Sequence record: MT764208.1
Strand: one strand, 5' to 3'
Source of the DNA: Escherichia phage JEP8
DNA: 64,000 bases
Part shown: one piece after another, positions 2,001-45,180 of the stretch
How the letters are laid out: each line of letters begins with the position of its first letter
Numbering within the stretch: the first letter of the stretch is position 1
Notes under the pieces: generated by a model
Seen by the model: only the letters and a program-made list of their open reading frames with translations
The model's database searches: none
Told to the model about the DNA's origin: nothing
Translations under genes and position numbers: made by a program

Positions 2001-3202
2001 AGGGAAGTAAGGTCAAAGCTCATCATCCAACGGTAAGCATTCGGCACAGGTTCTTTTACAAATGCGCCTGGATAAGTCTGCTTAGGCTGTATCTTATTTT
2101 CCGGTACTACTTTACCCTCTGCTTTCAGAGATCCGAAGATAATAGCATCCCATACCTTCATCGGGTTATATACATGGTTAAACTTAATTTTCGCATAGAA
2201 ACATAGACTATACACAAGATCGATAAATCCACGCTTTTTATCAATCGCCAGCACACGGTCAACGTCGCCGATGTTATAATCGATGTAAAGTTGATGGTTG
2301 TCATCACGCAATTTCTTTAATGGACCATCATAATCAACCTTACCGATTCCTGTCTCATATTCAGCAACATAATCTAATGCATATGTTGGTTGAGTCGTAA
2401 AGCTAAATTTCTTGTACAGGTCAATATAATCAAGGCTTTCGATCCCCATGATCGTAAATGCTTCACGCTCGTTGCCAAAATCATCCTGTGAGATTCTGGA
2501 TTTAATCTTACCGCACGGGCTTAGACGGTTTGCCGTTCGACTTCCAAACTTATTCCCGATACGTTTAATGATATATGGAATATCGAATGTTTCTGTGTTC
2601 CAGCCAGTGAAACCAACGGGTCGGTTTTCCTCAAAGAATCGGATGTATTCTAACAGCAATTCATCTTCTGTGTCATAAACGTTATAAACAACGCGCTCCA
2701 CAATATCAGGTCGAAGAATAGACTTGCTTGCTTCCCAGATTTCACCGTTTTTTCCTTTCAAATCAAATACAAAGAAACGATCATGTAAGGAATCATAATG
2801 CGTAATTGCATCGATAGGATATTTCGCTTCTTCTGGTTTAGGAAATTCTGGGGCAGTGACCTCAATATCAACCCACGCTACACGGATTTTATTTCGGTCA
2901 TATCGAATCTCGCCTTTATATGTATCGGACAGATAGGAGATGATAAAATCATCCATCCCTAGTGCCTCTTGCCCCATTTCCCCCATCTTTTTACGCCATT
3001 TGTTGGCCTCGTTCATAGATGGGAATTTTTTAGCAATGCAAGGCTTGCCATAGATATCTTTATAATTCGTAACCATACCAGGCGCGGCATGATGAAATAA
3101 AGTTGGCGTATATTCAACGTAACGCTCTTGTTCTTGTCCAGCATCATCAATATAACGCTCGTAGATCTTATCACCCACTCGCTCACATGACAGAAAATAC
3201 AT
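2001..3202 (-). CDS. 43: DNA polymerase gp43, upstream (N-terminal) exon
   Basis: MYFLSCERVGDKIYERYIDD...DIEV...FDLTSL matches the T4 gp43 N-terminus and 3'-5' exonuclease region (DIEVT, YIDLY...). ATG at 3202 preceded by GGAGGA; the track start at 3232 is GTG. Frame stops with TGA (1994-1996) just past the proposed 5' splice site. Confidence 0.9.
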
Positions 3203-3234
3203 AATATAAACTCCTCCACTTACGAAAGACACTC

Positions 3235-3263
3235 ATTATAGGGGAATCGACTTGGTTTGTCAA
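3235..3263 (-). promoter_or_regulatory. sigma70-type early promoter upstream of gene 43 (TTGACA-N17-TATAAT)
   Basis: Minus strand: TTGACA (3263..3258), 17-nt spacer, TATAAT (3240..3235), then GGAGGA RBS and ATG at 3202. Confidence 0.6.
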
Positions 3264-3284
3264 TACCCCTATCCCATCAGTATC

Positions 3285-3647
3285 TTAGCGTCCGATCTGA
3301 TATTTCTCGATCAGAGTCCACTCTTCTTTCTGTTTGAAAGACAGTACACGGAAATTATTAACTTCGGTAGTTTCAAAATCACTATCAATTAGGGTACATA
3401 GATTCCACTGCGCCAGAAGTTTTGCAATGTTATTACGGCGTAATTCATCTTCCCACGTCATTTTAACACTACGACCATCTAATTTCAACAACTCCTTGAA
3501 ATGAACGATGTAATAGCGCCCTTTCTTCTGGAGAATATGACAAGACTGATACAGAGTCTTGTCTCGATTGTTGGCAATGCCGCAGCGGGTTAAAGTCTCC
3601 TTAATTTTAAGGAAGTTTTCAGGACTAATCAAATTAATTTCAATCAT
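3285..3647 (-). CDS. regA: Translational repressor RegA
   Basis: MIEINLISPENFLKIKETLTRCGIANNRDKTLYQSCHILQKKGRYYIVHFKE... closely matches T4 RegA; position between 62 and 43 as in T4. Confidence 0.9.
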   Translation of the reverse strand: MIEINLISPENFLKIKETLTRCGIANNRDKTLYQSCHILQKKGRYYIVHFKELLKLDGRSVKMTWEDELRRNNIAKLLAQWNLCTLIDSDFETTEVNNFRVLSFKQKEEWTLIEKYQIGR

Positions 3648-31983: not shown

Positions 31984-32382
31984 TTAAGCCAGTCGAGTGA
32001 GTTTATAAATTGTTTTAAAGCATAGAGCTTTGATATCGTCTAAAACGCTCTGTAACGAGCTATCAACATCATTATAAATCTCACTAGCCATTTGCGTTAA
32101 CTCTTGCAAATAGGCAATTTCGCTCATCTCCTTGCGGACGACCAACGTTGGCTGATAACGACCAGTGATCCCAATATTGGTTTCAGTGAAATCATCAACC
32201 AATTCTTGCATTTCAAGATAGAACTCTTCTAGAGCCTTATGTTTTGCATAAGATCCAGGACCAGTTACTCCAAAATGCGCAGAATGCATATAAGTAACAC
32301 TCATCAGACATTCACCGATAAAGCGGTCAACTTTATTAGCTTTCCCCTCTTCGGACGTCTTTAGAAAATCAATGAATTTCAT
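31984..32382 (-). CDS. Hypothetical protein, possibly ferritin/Dps-like four-helix bundle (weak)
   Basis: Start trimmed to MKFIDFLK...; motif HSAHFGVTGPGSYAKHKALEEFY loosely resembles Dps helix A/B region. Confidence 0.4.
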   Translation of the reverse strand: MKFIDFLKTSEEGKANKVDRFIGECLMSVTYMHSAHFGVTGPGSYAKHKALEEFYLEMQELVDDFTETNIGITGRYQPTLVVRKEMSEIAYLQELTQMASEIYNDVDSSLQSVLDDIKALCFKTIYKLTRLA

Positions 32383-32671
32383 GTTCTTTATTCTCCATAT
32401 TATGCAACATAACAAACTGTTGTGCGGCATATTCCCCCATAATAAAACACTGCTTAGAATCCATACATTTACTACGAGCATACATCTTCATAATATGGGC
32501 ATGAAATTTCTGGCTGGTTTCAATGGAAGGAGATATTTTGTTTACATATACTATCATTGCACCGTCGAAATAATCAGTAAAGTCACCAGTTGGATCATAT
32601 TGATCAGCACTGACGCTTCCGACCGCAGTAAAGCATATTGCCGCTGTTAGAGTTTTACGAATAAATGACAT
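32369..32671 (-). CDS. Hypothetical secreted/periplasmic protein
   Basis: N-terminal signal-peptide-like MSFIRKTLTAAICFTAVGSVSA. Confidence 0.5.
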   Translation of the reverse strand: MSFIRKTLTAAICFTAVGSVSADQYDPTGDFTDYFDGAMIVYVNKISPSIETSQKFHAHIMKMYARSKCMDSKQCFIMGEYAAQQFVMLHNMENKEHEIH

Positions 32672-32740
32672 AAGTCATTCCCCCAGATTTAAAAATATTC
32701 AGTTATATTTATAATCTGGGGCTTTATTTATGATTAACTC

Positions 32741-38150: not shown

Positions 38151-38636
38151 TTAGTTGATACCTAAGCCAATGAAAATAGGTTGGTCTTCTACATTACCCA
38201 TCCCAACACTAAGTCGATTCACTTCTAAAAACTGCAATACGCTGTCAGTAAATCCGCGCATGGTAGTATCTAGGATAAAAATTGTTTTGTCAAGACTACG
38301 ACCTCGCCATGTGATCGGATTCAGGAAAGTTCGGATCGACGTACAATCTACATTTGAAATATTTACATTTTCACCGCGACCGCGATCTCGGATCGTTTTG
38401 GCATGTTCCCGCGTCGTTGAAACGATAAAGACACTATAGCCTTTTCTAGTATAATGGTCATATAACTTGATTGTAGCGTCTGTATGCCCTGTCTGACGTC
38501 CTAAATTGATTGAGACGATGGAATCTAGGTCATCAGCAAAATTGCGTCGCTTACGACGTTCTATGATGCCATTTACGGCAGATACACACGCAGCATAAAT
38601 CAAATCTTTACTTTCTAATTTTACATCAATATTCAT
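38151..38636 (-). CDS. Hypothetical protein
   Basis: 161-aa ORF. Confidence 0.5.
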   Translation of the reverse strand: MNIDVKLESKDLIYAACVSAVNGIIERRKRRNFADDLDSIVSINLGRQTGHTDATIKLYDHYTRKGYSVFIVSTTREHAKTIRDRGRGENVNISNVDCTSIRTFLNPITWRGRSLDKTIFILDTTMRGFTDSVLQFLEVNRLSVGMGNVEDQPIFIGLGIN

Positions 38637-38698
38637 GGTAAAGTCTCCAGTGAACGGGGAGAGATCCTTAGATTGTCTCCCCGTTGATGGTTAATATT

Positions 38699-39088
38699 TT
38701 ATTTTGGATCTGGGTATTTGCTGTGTGGTAATTGTAGATGAGGACCATCTTTAAAACTAGTCCAATCCCCACCCCATTCAACAGGAACACCCAATTCTCG
38801 ACCAGCTTGTTTAAATGCATCAGCGATCATGCGGTAATATTTCATGTTCCATGTATCTTTATCTTTCGGATACGCTACAACGTCAACCGCGAAACCGTGA
38901 AGATGACGAGATTTCATAGTCTTAGATTTACCTTCCGCAACATATTTCTTTTGCGTTTCTAGACTACGCACACCTTCCGTAATACCAAAATCGACCGGAG
39001 TCAGTTCTAATGCACGATGAACGACTTTTACCAGGTCTGGATGTACACCAACAAGCCGATCTTTGCTTCTTTGAGATAATCTAAACAT
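38699..39088 (-). CDS. Peptidase M15-type endolysin (probable L-alanyl-D-glutamate endopeptidase)
   Basis: Zn-binding pattern SRHLHGFAVDV ... DGPH typical of M15 cell-wall peptidases; occupies the locus where T4 has lysozyme e; GGGGGTGA RBS. Confidence 0.7.
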   Translation of the reverse strand: MFRLSQRSKDRLVGVHPDLVKVVHRALELTPVDFGITEGVRSLETQKKYVAEGKSKTMKSRHLHGFAVDVVAYPKDKDTWNMKYYRMIADAFKQAGRELGVPVEWGGDWTSFKDGPHLQLPHSKYPDPK

Positions 39089-39116
39089 TATTCACCCCCT
39101 TTGTGAGTGATAATAT

Positions 39117-39308
39117 TTAGATTCCTGCAATCCTGCATAGAGTTCTTGTATTAGCACCAATCAGGATAGCATTGACTACAACCATTCCCCAATCAACCCA
39201 CGGATTATTATAAATGCTAAATCCGTTTGTTATGCCAAATACAAGCATTCCGGTACACATACTCAGAGCAATAATCAACATCACGGTAAAACCAAATGCA
39301 AATTTCAT
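39117..39308 (-). CDS. Small hydrophobic membrane protein (holin/lysis-accessory candidate)
   Basis: 63 aa, two predicted TM segments; immediately upstream of the endolysin. Confidence 0.5.
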   Translation of the reverse strand: MKFAFGFTVMLIIALSMCTGMLVFGITNGFSIYNNPWVDWGMVVVNAILIGANTRTLCRIAGI

Positions 39309-39309
39309 A

Positions 39310-39527
39310 TTATTTTCCTTTTCTCTGTTTACGTTTATAAAAGTAATACATTACCTCATCGCGTCCGGTGATCCAACATGCTAGGGCAGTAAACAGGTTT
39401 ACAATTCCCAACACACCTACTGACGCGGCGCTGTCAACAGACATAGGAACAGTAAAGGCCATAGCTAACATAGCAATGCCACAAATGACATTAAGCACCA
39501 TTATAATAAGACCGAAGAAAACCATTG
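39310..39527 (-). CDS. Small hydrophobic membrane protein
   Basis: Start set to the ATG with GGAGGA RBS (MVFFGLIIMVLNV...). Confidence 0.5.
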
Positions 39528-39529
39528 TC

Positions 39530-39707
39530 AATCCTCCCAAATAAGAAAACCAACAATCACGCCAGTGATAAGACATGATGCGCCGCTAATAAGACAACCA
39601 GCACCAAGTGATTCCCACCAGATCAGAGAAGCGACAATAACGCAAATTCCCCAGACTACCGCAATCACAACATAGGCAAGGGTCGCCCAAAACATATATT
39701 TGTTCAT
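39530..39707 (-). CDS. Small hydrophobic membrane protein (59 aa, below ORF-track cutoff)
   Basis: Manual translation MNKYMFWATLAYVVIAVVWGICVIVASLIWWESLGAGCLISGASCLITGVIVGFLIWED. Confidence 0.4.
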
Positions 39708-39892
39708 AATAAACCCAACTCACCAAACAAATAAGAAAAAAGCCATATCAACAGAAACGAGGCAATTGATCCGACAAGCAAAATGATATTAGAGAATCCA
39801 CCGTCTACCCAGGCAACAAAACAGAATACGCTAGTATAGAAGCATAAACCCATTACAAAGCATACTATAAGCAACCATAGATAAAACGTCAT
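39704..39892 (-). CDS. Small hydrophobic membrane protein
   Basis: 62 aa, hydrophobic. Confidence 0.5.
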   Translation of the reverse strand: MTFYLWLLIVCFVMGLCFYTSVFCFVAWVDGGFSNIILLVGSIASFLLIWLFSYLFGELGLL

Positions 39893-40114
39893 AGAAAGTC
39901 CTCCAGCGAGATAAATTAGTGCGGGTAGTGGAATGTACTACCCGCTTTGTTAATCAACGCAGAGCTTCTTCTAGCGCGATCCCAAACCATCCACAAACAA
40001 CGCCCATACAGACAGCTACAAGAAGATTCATTCTCTCTTTAGGGATCATTGCAATCATAACAACAACCATACAGAAAGCCATTACCATTGATGTTAACAT
40101 TTGTTCAACCATTA

Positions 40115-40453
40115 TCACACCTTTAAAGTCATAGACGCATAAACATTAATGCCAGGCCAGTTAGGATCGCAATTATACTCAACATCCCACAAATAAAGCG
40201 GTTTAGATGTATCAGCCAAGTTTTTAAAATCTTCTACCCACATTTCAAGGCTATATGATGGATAAACTAGGCTATCATATCCGCCGTAACGTTGGCCTAC
40301 TGGTCGGTCAGTAAAAACTACCTCAAGATCCGGTAATTCTTTTTCAAGGATAACCGCCAGCGCATAAATCAGACGGTCTTCCTTGTTACGCTGCCGAAGG
40401 ACCGTTGTCAGTTGGTTTTTCTGGTTCACTAGCAAGCACCTCCACATTTTCAC
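40115..40453 (-). CDS. Hypothetical protein (start uncertain)
   Basis: 112-aa ORF overlapping the upstream ORF by ~68 nt. Confidence 0.4.
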   Translation of the reverse strand: MKMWRCLLVNQKNQLTTVLRQRNKEDRLIYALAVILEKELPDLEVVFTDRPVGQRYGGYDSLVYPSYSLEMWVEDFKNLADTSKPLYLWDVEYNCDPNWPGINVYASMTLKV

Positions 40454-40706
40454 AGAATGAAATTTTCACAGACACAATTTTACCATAAGTGAAGAATGAA
40501 TATACATTATCGATATATTCAACGTCACCTACAATCACATCAAACTGCGGATCAGCAACCGCCGCAACATATTCTACCAGTTCATCAAGAGAATGCAACT
40601 TAATTTCATCAATTCGGCTGTATTTGGTTGCATCTTTGATTTTAAAACCACGTTCTTTCAGCTTATCAATTAGAATTTCACGCGGAGTTTCAAACAGTTT
40701 GCTCAT
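40386..40706 (-). CDS. Hypothetical protein
   Basis: 106-aa ORF. Confidence 0.5.
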   Translation of the reverse strand: MSKLFETPREILIDKLKERGFKIKDATKYSRIDEIKLHSLDELVEYVAAVADPQFDVIVGDVEYIDNVYSFFTYGKIVSVKISFCENVEVLASEPEKPTDNGPSAA

Positions 40707-40727
40707 AATATAATCCTCACATTAAAT

Positions 40728-40928
40728 CTAAAATTTGTTAACGACGAATTGCATAATTAGACTAATCATAAACATTGCAAACCAAGTATAAATGCAACAG
40801 ATAAAAGCTACATACAATTCAATCTGGTCAGAGAATACACCGGGTAAAAGCATTAGCAAAATAACAACAGTAAAGACGCTAGCGATACCCGCAACAAAAC
40901 CAATATCATTTTTACTAATCGTCATCAA
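40728..40928 (-). CDS. Small hydrophobic membrane protein
   Basis: 66 aa. Confidence 0.45.
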   Translation of the reverse strand: MMTISKNDIGFVAGIASVFTVVILLMLLPGVFSDQIELYVAFICCIYTWFAMFMISLIMQFVVNKF

Positions 40929-41122
40929 GTCACCGTTTTGTAAAGAAACACAATAAAATCCAAGACAAGAAAGACAGTGTAAATGATCATCGTCAAGACA
41001 GTAAACACTGTCAAATTTTCATCGTTAGTTAATTCATAGTCGCCCATCCATACAATAACAAGATATAGCATTGAAAGAATGGAAGCACCTACTAAGTTAA
41101 AAAACATATTCTTTAGCGTCAT
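40925..41122 (-). CDS. Small hydrophobic membrane protein
   Basis: 65 aa. Confidence 0.45.
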   Translation of the reverse strand: MTLKNMFFNLVGASILSMLYLVIVWMGDYELTNDENLTVFTVLTMIIYTVFLVLDFIVFLYKTVT

Positions 41123-41123
41123 G

Positions 41124-41306
41124 TTAACAATCCTCGCGGCTTAAGTCAACAGCAATTGCATACAGAATAATGAATATACTAGCAGATCCGAGAATCAATG
41201 CACCGTCACATTTTGAAACTCGCTCATCAAAATGCAACATTATCCATCCGAGGATGTTAAAGGCGCACACCGCGCCTATGTTATCTAACCAATTAATCTT
41301 TTTCAT
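41124..41306 (-). CDS. Small hydrophobic membrane protein
   Basis: 60 aa. Confidence 0.45.
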   Translation of the reverse strand: MKKINWLDNIGAVCAFNILGWIMLHFDERVSKCDGALILGSASIFIILYAIAVDLSREDC

Positions 41307-41314
41307 AATATACC

Positions 41315-41641
41315 TTAGAAAGAAACAGTTTTCAAGAAATCCAGATTTTCAGTACCGAATACAGAAAAGTAGTGTTTTCCTTTTTCGGTTTTAGAGAAAG
41401 CGATTGTCTTCTCTACATGGTGACGGAAGCCAGACAGACGATCACCCAGGTCAAGGCGGCAAGCGTAAGTAGTGCCGTTTTCGAAAGTAACCTCGATTTG
41501 AGTTTTGTCGTATTCGCTTTCATAGGCTTTTGCTGCCGCTTCCAGTGCTTTACGCTCGAAGTCTTCGAAGTGGAATACTTCGTTTGCGTTAGCGAATACA
41601 GAAGATTCAGAGAAGATAACTTTAACAGATACTGGTTTCAT
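41315..41641 (-). CDS. Hypothetical protein
   Basis: 108-aa ORF downstream of a promoter cassette. Confidence 0.55.
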   Translation of the reverse strand: MKPVSVKVIFSESSVFANANEVFHFEDFERKALEAAAKAYESEYDKTQIEVTFENGTTYACRLDLGDRLSGFRHHVEKTIAFSKTEKGKHYFSVFGTENLDFLKTVSF

Positions 41642-41682
41642 TTGATACTCCTTAGTAGTTCGTGTTTCGTTTCGATGGGTGT

Positions 41683-41711
41683 ATTATGCTATACACCCTC
41701 TCGTGTGTCAA
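41683..41711 (-). promoter_or_regulatory. sigma70-type early promoter (TTGACA-N17-CATAAT)
   Basis: Minus strand TTGACA (41711..41706) and CATAAT (41688..41683), then the ACACCCAUCGAAACGAAACAC leader. Confidence 0.6.
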
Positions 41712-41719
41712 CAACTTTT

Positions 41720-41908
41720 TTAGTCTTTTTTCATAATTTCTAGAGCAGTTTCTACAGCACCTTTCCAACCCTCCCACATAATGGACATAGTAATGAAGTT
41801 AAAGCACCCGCAGGAATCAGCCTTTTTAGAAATAAACCATTCTGCAAACTCTTCGCTCATACCATGCTCTTTAGCGGATTCGCGTAATTGTTCAATTTGG
41901 TCTTCCAT
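41720..41908 (-). CDS. Hypothetical protein
   Basis: 62-aa ORF. Confidence 0.45.
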   Translation of the reverse strand: MEDQIEQLRESAKEHGMSEEFAEWFISKKADSCGCFNFITMSIMWEGWKGAVETALEIMKKD

Positions 41909-41917
41909 AGTATCACC

Positions 41918-42118
41918 TCAACACTTAACGTTATTCAAACGATTTTGAAAGTACATATAGCAAGCATAATTTTGTTTTGGCTGTACCGTATCAGATAAGC
42001 ACGCTTTTACAGCCTCGCGGTCCGATGGGTCTACGCCCTCAGCGTTAAGCAATGCTAAGATCTGATAATAGCGTACTCTCAGTTGCGTTAATGGTTTCTC
42101 TCCCATAAAACCCTCCAA
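41918..42118 (-). CDS. Hypothetical protein
   Basis: 66-aa ORF. Confidence 0.45.
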   Translation of the reverse strand: MEGFMGEKPLTQLRVRYYQILALLNAEGVDPSDREAVKACLSDTVQPKQNYACYMYFQNRLNNVKC

Positions 42119-42346
42119 TTAAAGTTGTTCTGCAATGTATGCGGTGCATTTACGGAGTTTAGCCATCGCACCACCTTTCATGTCGCTTGCACCTACAAGG
42201 TTCATAATCTCTAAGCGGTCAGCCGGATTCAGTCTAGTAGCCCAGATCTGGTTAGCCAGTTCCATTTTACCCATCTGCGGTTCCATCTCTAACAGTTCGC
42301 GCTCAAATTCGATAATTTCTTTTGCTGCGTCTTTAAAGTTAATCAT
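42119..42346 (-). CDS. Hypothetical protein
   Basis: 75-aa ORF. Confidence 0.5.
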   Translation of the reverse strand: MINFKDAAKEIIEFERELLEMEPQMGKMELANQIWATRLNPADRLEIMNLVGASDMKGGAMAKLRKCTAYIAEQL

Positions 42347-42412
42347 TTTGGTCCTCCCGTTTCGTTGATGGTTATATTGTAGGGGAGTTATCCTCCCCTG
42401 TCAACACTTTTA

Positions 42413-42598
42413 TCAGAAATATGCAATATAGTTTGCCAGTCCTACAGAGTCATCATTCGGCATTGCTTTTACTGCCAGTTCAAACCCTGCTTCAACTTTC
42501 TGTTTAGCGGATTCTTCGTTATAACCCCAGATTACCAGAATAGCTACTACGTTTTCTTTGCTTACTGCTTTAAGTGCTTTAGTGATGCGACGTGCCAT
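42413..42598 (-). CDS. Hypothetical protein
   Basis: 61-aa ORF downstream of a promoter cassette. Confidence 0.5.
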   Translation of the reverse strand: MARRITKALKAVSKENVVAILVIWGYNEESAKQKVEAGFELAVKAMPNDDSVGLANYIAYF

Positions 42599-42644
42599 AA
42601 TTTGATTCTCCGTTTAAGAAAGTGTGTTTCGTTTCGATGGGTGT

Positions 42645-42673
42645 ATTATGCTATAGGCCGGATCTGGTGTCAA
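42645..42673 (-). promoter_or_regulatory. sigma70-type early promoter (TTGACA-N17-CATAAT)
   Basis: Minus strand TTGACA (42673..42668) and CATAAT (42650..42645), then the CAUCGAAACGAAACAC leader. Confidence 0.6.
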
Positions 42674-42700
42674 CAACTTTTTTAAAAAAATTTTAGGCAA

Positions 42701-42725
42701 TAAAAAAGCCACTCCGAAGAGTGGC
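42701..42725 (-). terminator. Rho-independent terminator
   Basis: Minus strand GCCACUC-UUCG-GAGUGGC followed by UUUUUUAUU. Confidence 0.65.
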
Positions 42726-42876
42726 TTATAGGGAAGGTAGCGAATCTTCCTTGTCTCCAACCTGCTAGCGGACTAGCAAGTGAATGCTTTAGCGTACCGG
42801 ATCGCCCACATACGCTGTAATAAATGCGGCTAGGTGACGTCCAAATCATTCTAACCGCGCTGTCTTTAGTTCACTA

Positions 42877-43095
42877 TTATTTATATCGCTTTCTCTCGCG
42901 ACGTTTTTGATCTTCTTCCTTGATAGAGTTAAATGCATCAAAAAGACACATGACACTGATAATGAACATAACCGTATTTTCTACGATATCCCACGGCTTC
43001 GCATCAGTACAGATCCCCCAAACGGTAAGAAATGCAAATAAGGCAGAAGAGATCACAAGCATGATACTTGCTAAGATATAAAAAGTCATTTTCAT
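42877..43095 (-). CDS. Small membrane protein
   Basis: 72 aa, hydrophobic N-terminus, basic C-terminal tail. Confidence 0.5.
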   Translation of the reverse strand: MKMTFYILASIMLVISSALFAFLTVWGICTDAKPWDIVENTVMFIISVMCLFDAFNSIKEEDQKRRERKRYK

Positions 43096-43286
43096 GGTTT
43101 TACCTCAATTCTTCGATATTCATCACACATCCACGCAGTAAGCAAGAATCCCAACACATAAGCAACAAAATACGTTAATGCTTCTTCTGGTTCGGTGCTA
43201 TGCGCCATCATCAGACCAGCGAGAAAGGTCTTAACAATTACATTTAAAATAATTAGCCACGCAAATAATTTCATCGTTTGCCCCAT
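43092..43286 (-). CDS. Small membrane protein
   Basis: 64 aa. Confidence 0.45.
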   Translation of the reverse strand: MGQTMKLFAWLIILNVIVKTFLAGLMMAHSTEPEEALTYFVAYVLGFLLTAWMCDEYRRIEVKP

Positions 43287-43510
43287 TTCGGACGAGTCTG
43301 TTCAAACTTATACATTACGTAACAATCTCGAATCATCCACGTAACAAGAGCACCAGTCAACACAGACAACACACAGAAGAAGTAAAACGGTCCGGTTGCA
43401 TTATCAACATGAGCAAGCCATGTAAAGAAAACACATGCAAGGAATGTAAAGAACATCATAAAGCACAAAAAAGCGAAATATTTTATACTACTCATATCGC
43501 CACCATACAA
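43271..43510 (-). CDS. Small membrane protein
   Basis: 79 aa. Confidence 0.45.
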   Translation of the reverse strand: MYGGDMSSIKYFAFLCFMMFFTFLACVFFTWLAHVDNATGPFYFFCVLSVLTGALVTWMIRDCYVMYKFEQTRPKWGKR

Positions 43511-43598
43511 CAGATCATAAGAAAACCCAACGCAATAAGAATTGCATCAAATTTAGTGAACTCCGGTCCACCTATCAACATCATTCGTTCCTGTTCAG

Positions 43599-43798
43599 TC
43601 ATAGATCACAGATCCATCTAAAAGCACCACATACAGCGATCAGGAGTGTAGGAACACTTGAGAAGAAAACCAACGTACAAAAATCATCTAGTGTAATACC
43701 GGAATAACTACCGACTGCAATCACACCGATGATCAGACACAGAAAGAAAACAAATGCAATCAGAAACAAAGTATTGCTAAACAGTTTAGTGATCATTA
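43599..43798 (-). CDS. Small membrane protein
   Basis: Start set to the ATG with GGGGTG RBS (MITKLFSNTLFL...). Confidence 0.45.
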
Positions 43799-43989
43799 GA
43801 CACCCCACGACGATCAATTTCAAAAACTTTTTTATCATCAACGAAGCATGTCACAACTGCCTCGTTGACTTCCGCAAATTGTTGTGTTACCCACTTAAGG
43901 TCAGATCGAAACAATGTTCTATTAATAACAAATGTTTTACCGCTCTTATCCTTACCCATAAATTTTGCTTTAACCATATCCAATTCCAT
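43786..43989 (-). CDS. Hypothetical protein
   Basis: 67-aa ORF. Confidence 0.45.
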   Translation of the reverse strand: MELDMVKAKFMGKDKSGKTFVINRTLFRSDLKWVTQQFAEVNEAVVTCFVDDKKVFEIDRRGVSNDH

Positions 43990-44000
43990 ATTATCACCTT

Positions 44001-44159
44001 ATTTGCTAATCGCTAAACCTAATCCGAAGAGAGCACCCGAGGCTACAGTATACCCGAAAGTTTCAAAGGCAGTAAAGACATCTAAGCCACCAGCTAACAG
44101 AGTTGCAGTAAACAGAGTACCAGCTACGAACATAAAAGTTTTACCGATAAATTTCATTT
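44001..44159 (-). CDS. Small membrane protein (52 aa, below ORF-track cutoff)
   Basis: Manual translation MKFIGKTFMFVAGTLFTATLLAGGLDVFTAFETFGYTVASGALFGLGLAISK; preceded by the AAGGAGAATCAAAAA leader. Confidence 0.4.
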
Positions 44160-44189
44160 TTTGATTCTCCTTTCGTTTCGTTTCGATGG

Positions 44190-44222
44190 GAGTATCTTAC
44201 TACCCCCGTTTCATGTTGTCAA
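44190..44222 (-). promoter_or_regulatory. sigma70-type early promoter cassette (TTGACA-N17-TAAGAT)
   Basis: Minus strand TTGACA (44222..44217) followed by TAAGAT and the CCCAUCGAAACGAAACGAAAGGAG leader. Confidence 0.5.
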
Positions 44223-44228
44223 CTATTT

Positions 44229-44603
44229 TTAAGAATATTTTACTTCGTCTACAATGTCTTTCATGACATTGATTTCCATTCCGGTCAGAACACGTTGGAA
44301 CATGTGCTGCACATACGCTTTCAGATATTCATTTGATGGCTTGCTATCGAAAGTCTTTTTAGTGTAGTAGTCATCACCGAAAGCTACTGTAATTACATTT
44401 TCGTCGTCGTTCCAAGCGATATAAGCAAATTTGCCGTTATCCCAGAAGCGAGCACTAATTGCTACTTTTGTTGAATCGAATCCTACTTCGCTGTGAGATT
44501 CAAGAACTACTTGCGTGCCAGTTTCTTTATGAATGTAGTAGCGGGATACTAAGTCAAAGTTACGGGTGTAGTGACATTCGAATTTATCTTTAAACATCAT
44601 CAT
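44229..44603 (-). CDS. Hypothetical protein
   Basis: 124-aa ORF. Confidence 0.55.
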   Translation of the reverse strand: MMMFKDKFECHYTRNFDLVSRYYIHKETGTQVVLESHSEVGFDSTKVAISARFWDNGKFAYIAWNDDENVITVAFGDDYYTKKTFDSKPSNEYLKAYVQHMFQRVLTGMEINVMKDIVDEVKYS

Positions 44604-44637: not shown

Positions 44638-44666
44638 ATTATGCTATAGTCGTTTATGGTTGTCAA
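44638..44666 (-). promoter_or_regulatory. sigma70-type early promoter (TTGACA-N17-CATAAT)
   Basis: Minus strand TTGACA (44666..44661) and CATAAT (44643..44638). Confidence 0.6.
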
Positions 44667-44709: not shown

Positions 44710-45180
44710 TTACAGTTTGGTCGTCCACTCCAGGTCTAGATCTTCGACATACTCATGAGATCGGACAATCTCTAAATCGAACTCTAGGTCAGTGCCAAAT
44801 TTACGCGCACCAACATCATAAGAAAGCGTGATATGCGGTACATATTCAGGATAATCCCACGTCGCACCTAAAGCAGTTCCGATATCGTGTCTGAATTGCA
44901 TGTAGTCGCTTTCAAATGCCAGCACAAGTGCATTAGTACCGGATTGAGTTTCAAACACTTTAAGATGACACAGAGAGCCTAAGAACTTTTCCCCTTCTTC
45001 TGGGATAAACGGAACATAGACACGAGAATATAAGATAGTGCTATGCAGTTTATCACGAGGAACGGCATTAGGCAGATCGTAGAACTCCTGCAATTTTTCA
45101 ATGCGGTCTAGTGTATCCTCAGTGAATTTAACAGCCGCATATGTACCTTTAACGGATTCTCGAAACGGGGTCATAATCAA
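44710..45180 (-). CDS. 2H phosphoesterase at the gene 57B position (Acb1-like cyclic-oligonucleotide phosphodiesterase candidate)
   Basis: Two H-x-[TS]-x motifs (HSTILYS and HITLSY) ~80 aa apart, the 2H/LigT-fold signature; directly upstream of 57A. Confidence 0.65.
   Translation of the reverse strand: MIMTPFRESVKGTYAAVKFTEDTLDRIEKLQEFYDLPNAVPRDKLHSTILYSRVYVPFIPEEGEKFLGSLCHLKVFETQSGTNALVLAFESDYMQFRHDIGTALGATWDYPEYVPHITLSYDVGARKFGTDLEFDLEIVRSHEYVEDLDLEWTTKL

Follow-up and report, generated by a model that had tools for sequence, protein, structure and literature searches.

An M15 endolysin gene and the neighbouring array of predicted small membrane-protein genes at the T4 gene e position of Escherichia phage JEP8: probably not one lysis cassette

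Where bacteriophage T4 encodes its lysozyme e, Escherichia phage JEP8 encodes a peptidase of the M15 type, and directly upstream of this gene lies a long run of tiny open reading frames (ORFs) for hydrophobic proteins, which raises the question of whether the enzyme and the membrane proteins work together as one lysis cassette. We analysed a stretch of 64,000 nucleotides (nt) of the JEP8 genome (sequence record MT764208.1; hereafter the window), whose minus strand carries every gene from ~36 to 47 kb, and the genes of the locus are numbered here from the endolysin gene (g01) upstream to g23. The reading that we prefer, with a probability of roughly 70% as an explanation of the whole, is an endolysin beside a separate array of early accessory membrane genes; the two would be functionally separate, and adjacent only because both lie in a hyperplastic early-transcribed stretch.

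The window, 96-97.6% identical to published genomes, belongs to an RB49-like phage. Positions 38600-44300 matched 58 phage records by megablast (51 with query coverage of at least 80%; 90-97.6% identity), all of them Krischvirus, the RB49-like "pseudo-T-even" coliphages, including GEC-3S, MIZ2, Phi1, RB49 and JSE. The T4 gene order is rI-tk-vs-regB-vs.3..vs.8-denV-ipII-ipIII-e-nudE-e.2..e.8-RNAs/tRNAs-ipI-57B-57A-1-3, and that of RB49 and the window is rI-tk-vs-vs.1-regB-..-nrdC.11-vs.6-orf41-vs.8-endolysin-[array with dmd]-57B-57A-1-3; the M15 endolysin gene occupies the syntenic slot of T4 gene e. The sole relative of T4 lysozyme within the window is the lysozyme domain of the tail protein gp5. 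The T4 interval from e to 57B also has a tRNA cluster, which Krischvirus lacks, and Rfam and tRNA scans of the window gave no match.

The enzyme g01 (38699-39088, 129 amino acids, aa) matched Pfam PF13539 Peptidase_M15_4 (E=4e-12; 46.8 bits, cut-off 25) as well as PHROG 465 "endolysin" (E=2e-68), and was identical to PDB entry 23RI at 128/129 residues and nearly identical to 8Q2G, with the T5 endolysin (2MXZ) and ChiX more distant. Together with the order vs.8-M15-[array]-57B, this upheld the earlier note on this DNA, which had placed an M15 enzyme at the T4 e locus. EndoRB49, from which the window protein differs only by K3R, belongs to the M15_C subfamily and is a zinc L-alanoyl-D-glutamate peptidase not regulated by calcium; it has been purified and assayed (PMC10487532, PMC8140593) with an activity of 3205 U/mg (PMC10487532), and in this enzyme H62 and H117 were assigned as zinc ligands and W109 was found critical (PMC10487532, PMC8140593). 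Residues H62, D69, H117, D114 and W109 (the zinc H-x6-D...H triad, the catalytic Asp and the conserved Trp) can all be read in the g01 translation, and the mutagenesis primers of PMC10487532 match the window DNA. The protein is almost certainly the endolysin of the phage and an orthologue of EndoRB49, and its muralytic peptidase activity, shown for the 99%-identical EndoRB49, can be presumed to carry over. Like the rest of the EndoRB49/EndoT5 family (M15_C; phages RB49, RB43, T5), it is a single-domain globular enzyme with the same zinc and catalytic residues and no signal sequence. That an M15 endolysin stands in for T4 lysozyme is already established for RB49 by biochemistry and structure, to which we add nothing new. 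No transmembrane (TM) helix, hydrophobic segment or signal sequence was found in g01, and an endolysin of this kind therefore needs a holin.

Before asking whether that holin is encoded next door, we considered whether the neighbouring mini-ORFs are genes at all. In a rough census, 36-44 kb held 15 hydrophobic ATG-initiated ORFs of 28-100 aa on the coding strand, as against 0-2 per 4-kb bin on that strand elsewhere and at most 4 on either strand, a cluster that is beyond chance. The earlier note had counted four tandem hydrophobic ORFs at 39117-39892 and about ten more up to 44160, and both counts proved right: the four are g02-g05 and the others are g06, g09, g10, g11, g17-g21 and g23, reaching 44157. 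Among seven Krischvirus loci the mini-ORFs were almost always intact and of equal length, their variable sites fell 65/30/124 at codon positions 1/2/3, and their pooled ratio of nonsynonymous to synonymous polymorphism (pN/pS) was 0.245 versus 0.159 in soluble neighbours. A divergent metagenomic relative with the same gene order (locus L013) kept every mini-ORF intact at 71-88% aa identity, with a pooled ratio of nonsynonymous to synonymous substitution (dN/dS) of 0.29. Moreover, a Shine-Dalgarno (SD)-like sequence precedes 14/14 mini-ORFs, and stop and start codons overlap in several. That they could be non-genes, by-products of a T-rich coding-strand sequence, is suggested by their very short length, their lack of a database family and the disagreement among annotations, in which g05, g10 and g20 are missing or of another length in some records; against this stand their intactness and conserved length in 8 relatives, one at the above divergence, the codon-position excess, the low ratios (0.25-0.29), the SD motifs throughout and the start/stop overlaps, and we give this explanation next to no credence. 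By these measures the 14 mini-ORFs (36-74 aa) are genuine genes, lineage-restricted to Krischvirus.

In the published TMHMM table for RB49 (Nolan et al.), ORFs 103, 104, 106 (twice), 107, 110-112, 118-122 and 124 are TM-positive, and the array orthologues account for 14 of the 21 rows that the table marks as TM-positive across the RB49 genome, nearly all with two helices. The proteins had thus been listed as TM-positive before, in a supplementary table of 2006, and appear in GenBank as "putative membrane protein", with no function assigned. From the published TMHMM boundaries and a tally of charges, 11 of 13 mini-proteins are predicted to be N-in/C-in with loops of 3-14 residues. No array mini-protein has an extramembrane segment >19 aa, and the lipobox motif [LVI][ASTVI][GAS]C is absent from every array ORF. 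Paralogy was considered and rejected: in shuffle-controlled Smith-Waterman alignment of the 14 mini-proteins none of the 91 pairs scored above z=3.7, so that they are not a duplicated family. PHROGs place every mini-ORF in a separate small family of unknown function, and Pfam at E<=1 returned only sub-threshold matches of TM composition (MHYT, holin_3_5/3_6, PspC-TM and others), far below the gathering scores. A sensitive blastn search of 50,697 phage records with the array as query gave the membrane ORFs no match outside Krischvirus; g02, g09 and g19 found only Krischvirus-like sequences among 5.8 billion clustered proteins (for g19, 3 clusters, all at least 96% identical), and an exhaustive HMMER search of 1.84 billion representatives with g03 returned only its own Krischvirus-like cluster. 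One outlier in the large-database searches, P0016, is a soluble three-repeat protein matched over ~37 residues and was judged spurious.

Do these proteins include the lysis partners of the endolysin? The earlier note had proposed holin, antiholin or spanin-like roles for some of them, and the case for such a cassette is easily stated: the genes lie on the same strand, immediately adjacent to the endolysin gene; g03, g17 and g19, and g18 in part, look like class II holins, being small with two TM helices and a charged, in g03, g17 and g19 highly charged, C-tail; and there are faint Pfam matches to holin superfamily III models (E=0.15-0.9). Indeed, the holin-like look of g03, g17 and g19 counts against our separation of endolysin and array, and so does the fact that the holin gene t of JEP8 would fall outside the 64-kb window, t being known from the genomes of relatives. 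The look is generic, however, being shared by many non-holin membrane proteins, and the holin Pfam matches reach 10-13 bits, far below gathering scores of 27-28. A complete canonical set exists in Krischvirus: in RB49 the holin gene t adjoins the tail-fibre genes, the spanin genes pseT.3/pseT.2 adjoin pseT, and rI adjoins tk. The window itself carries, on its minus strand, the antiholin gene rI (32375-32671), which tblastn placed at 97% identity to RB49 RI (E=2e-65), with a perfect late promoter TATAAATA (32706-32713) 35 nt upstream. The T protein was found at 95% identity or more in 58 records, and the array too is present in 58 records.

A T-type holin with an M15 endolysin is a proven combination in T5-like phages, where the M15 gene is directly preceded by that of a 218-aa holin homologous to T (RB49 T: 32% identity, E=1e-32). 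The T5-like cassette uses the same two protein families, with an endolysin 38% identical; there holin and endolysin genes are adjacent, whereas in Krischvirus t and the endolysin gene lie ~100 kb apart, like t and e in T4. The mini-ORFs gave no family match to T or RI, and the build of one TM or signal-arrest-release (SAR) segment plus a large periplasmic domain was not seen among them; because they have no lipobox and no extramembrane segment beyond the length given above, spanin, RI-type and T-type architectures are excluded. Neither the late expression nor the conserved endolysin neighbourhood of class II holins was found, since the array promoters are early, the endolysin ribosome-binding site (RBS) is masked on the shared transcript, and no array of membrane mini-ORFs accompanies the M15 endolysin gene in Miro (Slopekvirus) or RB43. 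A single cassette in which some mini-ORFs serve as holin, antiholin or spanin is very unlikely on this evidence, and the mini-ORFs are very probably not lysis partners of the endolysin. In the preferred reading, the soluble cytoplasmic endolysin would reach the cell wall through a T-type holin encoded ~100 kb away, RI would set the timing of lysis, and the spanins PseT.3/PseT.2 would complete it, as gene content suggests.

The early character of the array was read from its promoters. The repeat family D1/D2 (four to five copies) consists of sigma70-consensus promoters, TTGACA-17-CATAAT/TACAAT, at 44666, 44222, 42673, 42404 and 41711, which match the consensus at 11/12 positions four times and at 10/12 at 44222; equivalent sites are annotated as promoters in GEC-3S, and stem-loops with G/C tracts overlap them. 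The hyperplastic regions of RB49 and phi1 contain PeSL cassettes, an early promoter plus a stem-loop between ORFans (Arbiol et al. 2010, PMC2839356), and the array promoters fit this published definition in sequence. They share with the PeSL-ORFan cassettes the sigma70 promoters with G/C stem-loops between short ORFans, and the gain, loss and replacement of genes among near-identical phages; here, unlike in those cassettes, most mini-ORFs are packed in operons and not flanked singly by PeSLs, and neither membrane proteins nor dmd nor the endolysin is a topic of Arbiol et al. (PMC2839356). MotA and middle promoters are both absent from RB49 (PMC1524935). The promoter at 44194-44222, upstream of g23, heads a first early operon, g23-dmd-g21-g20-g19-g18-g17, with a terminator at 42727-42706. 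The PeSL-type promoter TTGACA-17-CATAAT with its overlapping stem-loop at 41683-41711 would drive the second, g12-g11-g10-g09-g08-g07-g06-(stem-loop)-g05-g04-g03-g02-endolysin-(stem-loop)-vs.8-orf41-vs.6, with a terminator at 37589-37565; as predicted from these signals, the endolysin gene is in the middle of an early operon of roughly 4 kb. Two more PeSL promoters (42376-42404 and 42645-42673) stand in the g13-g16 region. Three late-promoter-like motifs with at most one mismatch lie on the coding strand of the array (a perfect TATAAATA inside g17, a one-mismatch octamer inside dmd, and one overlapping the -35 element upstream of g23); none of them is independently supported, and the one in g17 precedes a candidate non-coding RNA. 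Judged from the promoters, the mini-ORFs are likely to be expressed early. A further near-consensus sigma70 promoter, TTGACA-17-TATTAT (11/12), lies on the minus strand at the g04/g03 junction (39503-39531), its -35 element overlapping the g04 stop and g03 start; it may act as an internal early promoter or be fortuitous.

The endolysin gene, although on the same early transcript, appears to be under a different control. On RNA that reads through from g02, a leader hairpin (39071-39130) is predicted to bury both the SD sequence (39099-39092) and the AUG (39088-39086) of the endolysin gene at -21.3 kcal/mol (z=-5.7, 0/200 shuffles as stable), whereas RNA starting at 39108 has hardly any structure (-3.9 kcal/mol, z=0.07). 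Within the 5' arm lies TCTAAATA (39114-39121), a late-promoter variant with one mismatch to TATAAATA that overlaps the g02 stop codon. The RB49 record annotates exactly this octamer, ahead of gene 32 (RB49 142181-142188), as "late RB49 promoter", and Nolan et al. also predicted it there, as Pl:142213; TCTAAATAT occurs only once in the window. A late transcription start of T4 type is predicted near 39108, six nt downstream of the octamer. On early read-through transcripts the endolysin SD and AUG would thus be locked in the hairpin, and late transcripts from TCTAAATA would begin near that position, lack the 5' arm and be translatable.

This is the logic of T4 gene e, in which a hairpin sequesters the RBS on early read-through RNA, the late promoters lie inside the hairpin, and early transcripts give ~100-fold less lysozyme (PMC3014915); folding the T4 e leader in the same way reproduced the published design. 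Both leaders have the SD and AUG in the 3' arm, a late octamer in the 5' arm and an unstructured truncated late RNA, and both genes lie downstream of early genes on the same strand. They differ in that the enzymes are unrelated, the octamer here is the TCTAAATA variant, and the late start site here is a predicted one; by eye, without alignment, the two leaders have no obvious sequence resemblance. RB49 and phi-1 are entered in PMC3014915 under "no apparent gene e", so that review did not cover this leader.

The leader sequence is 99% invariant across nine Krischviruses, and the divergent metagenomic relative keeps the fold (-18.3 kcal/mol) while its flanking genes are only 81-85% identical. 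In RB49 the same hairpin core forms. The K3R change (A-to-G in codon 3, position 39080) converts a C.A mismatch of the leader hairpin into a C-G pair, with a predicted stability of -12.9 kcal/mol in RB49 versus the above value in the window, although the RB49 leader also differs at two upstream positions. Similar leaders were predicted at the M15 genes of two other T4-like genera: in Miro (locus L012, 5935-6025) the outer stem pairs the SD (z=-5.0), with the late-promoter-like octamer CATAAATA on the 5' side, and in RB43 (locus L017, 31808-31895) it does so at z=-4.7, truncation opening it to z=0.6, with the late-promoter-like octamer CGTAAATA on the 5' side. Among endolysin genes in this slot, a masked RBS may be the general rule.

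Several points weigh against a switch of this kind. The hairpin has much lower stability in RB49 (z=-2.3) than in the window; it has no covariation support, because the leader sequence is too invariant among the relatives compared; TCTAAATA near the endolysin gene is not among the 17 late promoters that Nolan et al. predicted for RB49; an octamer with at most one mismatch would be expected by chance in ~3% of 30-nt stretches, given 10 such sites in 11 kb; and the 5' arm includes the stop codon of g02 (39119-39117), where ribosomes that finish g02 could melt the stem and so tie endolysin translation to that of g02. We therefore weighed coupling to g02 translation as an explanation that could operate instead of the late promoter or besides it. 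The endolysin AUG is 28 nt downstream of that stop, and the octamer is non-consensus, with published scans predicting no promoter here; in T4, on the other hand, nudE likewise ends just before the e hairpin (a 37-nt gap), yet early transcripts give the low lysozyme yield cited above (PMC3014915), TCTAAATA is an annotated RB49 late promoter, and early endolysin synthesis would have no obvious benefit. Coupling is rather unlikely by comparison, and an RBS-masking, late-promoter switch with the logic of T4 gene e remains on balance probable. The predicted leader weakens the assumption that adjacency to the endolysin gene means co-expression with it. A leader of the gene e type with TCTAAATA at a non-homologous endolysin appears to be undescribed in the literature, and is a modest novelty.

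If the mini-proteins are not lysis partners, what might they do? The array contains dmd (43786-43989; PF17587, E=8e-16; PHROG 2102), the "discriminator of mRNA degradation" antitoxin, which scored z=21.7 against T4 Dmd; in T4, dmd adjoins gene 41, and here it has moved into the operon of membrane ORFs. Dmd is an antitoxin against host RNase toxins. Some 550 nt upstream of the array, 57B (44710-45180) matched the Pfam family "Anti-CBASS protein Acb1" (E=1.5e-51), and by homology the array is bracketed by the known counter-defence genes 57B/Acb1 and dmd. A search that covered about three-quarters of the Krischvirus genome, and in which the gp5 lysozyme is present, gave no homologue of the T4 exclusion proteins Imm or Sp; the best tblastn values were E=9 for Imm and E=0.05 for Sp, the latter inside gene 41. 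The mini-proteins themselves scored z<=2.6 against T4 Imm, Sp and 61.x (61.1, 61.2 and 61.4), where Dmd served as the control, and gave no PF14373 match.

T4 Imm is a small early membrane protein that binds the tape-measure protein of the incoming phage and blocks genome translocation, as does HK97 gp15 (bioRxiv 10.64898/2026.03.06.709160). The mini-proteins share with Imm and gp15 the size class, a predicted helical-hairpin topology and presumed early expression, and differ in having no sequence similarity to them and in being fourteen unrelated proteins instead of one. The mechanism that we consider most likely follows this analogy: they would insert in the inner membrane, mostly as N-in/C-in helical hairpins with the short periplasmic loops described above, and each would bind a target within the membrane, be it an ejection protein of a rival phage or a membrane or defence protein of the host; such binding would lead to superinfection exclusion or counter-defence, not lysis. 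From analogy and gene context, we suspect at somewhat less than even odds that at least one mini-protein has an exclusion or anti-defence role.

A different proposal would make the mini-proteins membrane-perturbing host-shutoff or toxin-like peptides (cf. type I toxins) that depolarise or permeabilise the membrane early, with no specific targets. They are small, very hydrophobic and presumably early-expressed, and novel-ORF regions were under-represented in plasmid libraries, suggesting toxicity (Nolan et al.), a remark that was not specific to the array ORFs. Fourteen unrelated sequences for one generic effect would be unparsimonious, most mini-ORFs are under purifying selection, and in the comparison of the window with L013 the loops and tails were more conserved than the TM cores, which suggests specific contacts; we regard generic toxicity as unlikely. 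T4 e.2, e.3, e.4 and trna.4 lie in the same interval and on the same strand, have one or two TM helices and are uncharacterised; T4 has four such membrane ORFs, mostly of 100-130 aa, whereas Krischvirus has fourteen of 36-74 aa, and we found no sequence similarity between the two sets (z<=3.2). Runs of membrane or secreted ORFs occur in other T4-like phages too (Nolan et al. table), and membrane-ORF clusters are a recurrent, unexplained feature of T4-like phages.

Upstream from the endolysin gene, the array begins with g02 (39117-39308, 63 aa, RB49 ORF103), a two-TM hairpin of PHROG 15016 (unknown function) with pN/pS 0.16-0.18, followed by g03 (39310-39525, 71 aa, RB49 ORF104; PHROG 15232), which has two TM helices and a basic C-tail, and by the two-TM proteins g04 (39528-39707, 59 aa, RB49 ORF105) and g05 (39704-39892, 62 aa, RB49 ORF106). 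The last of these evolves fast (pN/pS 0.77 and 0.49), as does g09 (dN/dS 0.85 versus L013). A G+C-rich, attenuator-like stem-loop without a coding-strand U-tract (39921-39945; -18.8 kcal/mol, z=-4.2) separates g05 from g06 (39954-40112, 52 aa, two TM, RB49 ORF107), which is predicted to be N-out/C-out. A second stable, G+C-rich stem-loop without a U-tract, which the annotation of phage G2248 gives as a putative terminator, lies directly 3' of the endolysin stop codon (38647-38690; -21 kcal/mol, z=-4.2); the two may be attenuators, RNA-processing sites or elements stabilising RNA 3' ends.

Soluble ORFs that the earlier note did not mention interleave the array, namely g07, g08, g12, g13-g16 and dmd. 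The first two (g07, 40115-40429; g08, 40386-40706) are under strong constraint, being 92-95% identical in aa to L013. Three two-TM proteins follow: g09 (40728-40925, 65 aa, RB49 ORF110), g10 (40925-41122, 65 aa, RB49 ORF111) and g11 (41124-41306, 60 aa, RB49 ORF112). In JSE, MIZ4 and phiS a single 64-aa two-TM ORF (3130-3324 of locus L005; 195 nt, annotated in phiS) replaces g09 and g10; it is a very divergent g09 allele with the common motifs IGF...P.V...IE...IY.W.A.F.S.IM, and g10 is absent. In W115, g10 aligned only with a 1-nt gap and the annotated ORF is shorter, which is consistent with a frameshift. The soluble LPD25-domain protein g12 (41315-41641; Pfam PF18840, E=3e-14) is the first gene of the early operon running down to the endolysin gene, and is followed by the four small soluble ORFs g13-g16 (41720-42598), of which g13 is gp55.3/DUF5490-like and g16 is DUF7421. 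We observed that g16 (42413-42598), which is PeSL-flanked, is common to more than 100 T1-like siphophages (tunus, tonn, JMPW1 and others) at ~72-79% DNA identity, and that g14-g15 (41927-42349) match Escherichia phage GaoY1-9D at 73%; these matches suggest horizontal exchange of single-gene cassettes between unrelated coliphage families.

Beyond the soluble genes lie g17 (42877-43095, 72 aa, RB49 ORF118), with two TM helices and a highly charged C-tail; g18 (43092-43274, 60 aa, two TM, RB49 ORF119); g19 (43271-43495, 74 aa, RB49 ORF120), with two TM helices and a basic C-tail; g20 (43492-43602, RB49 ORF121), which has one TM helix and 29-36 aa depending on the start codon; g21 (43599-43796, 65 aa, two TM, RB49 ORF122); and, past dmd, g23 (43999-44157, 52 aa, two TM, RB49 ORF124), the first gene after the early promoter at the upstream end of the array. 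The window g21 has only 83-86% DNA identity to all seven relatives compared, against 96-100% in neighbouring genes, which suggests a recombinant or otherwise unsampled allele.

The gap between g17 and g16 holds a candidate small late RNA (42698-42885). It would start from the TATAAATA at 42885-42878, which overlaps the last g17 codons, and run as a structured RNA of ~150-165 nt, a stretch with no annotated ORF, to the intrinsic terminator already named as the end of the first operon; its predicted fold reaches -58.9 kcal/mol (z=-3.6, 0/200 shuffles). The sequence is 97-99.5% identical in nine relatives, including the divergent metagenomic one, with changes clustered in one apical loop; it had no Rfam match and no covariation, the sequence being too invariant. 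Homology to T4 RNA C/D was considered and discarded, since there was no similarity, although RNA C/D occupy the syntenic interval. This candidate, too, appears to be undescribed in the literature and is a modest addition.

On the other flank of the endolysin gene, JSE, G2248 and phiS carry a gene for a 191-aa HNH endonuclease inserted directly downstream of it, between vs.8 and the endolysin gene (479-1054 in both L005 and L006 and 8436-9011 in L011, the loci of these three phages respectively), which is absent from the window. In JSE and G2248 the final 39 nt of the endolysin gene do not align with the window, as expected from homing-associated co-conversion.

The predicted leader would extend the classic control of T4 gene e to a non-homologous enzyme, a small and checkable addition. 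Taken further, the array, placed by its promoters in an early operon with dmd and close to Acb1, might be a membrane arsenal in which each mini-protein is an Imm/gp15-like blocker of the genome-delivery proteins of a different competitor or of a different membrane-bound defence of the host, and, separately, at least two unrelated endolysin families (T4 lysozyme and M15) might have come under the same switch in the same slot; this wider idea, drawn by analogy, is speculative and we hold it doubtful. If true, the arsenal would account for the speed at which alleles turn over and for the lack of a recognisable imm or sp in Krischvirus. About two-thirds of RB49's TM-predicted novel ORFs (2006 table) lie in these 5 kb beside known anti-defence genes, and this concentration makes the locus a compact, testable target for new exclusion or counter-defence proteins in a phage genus that is used for therapy.

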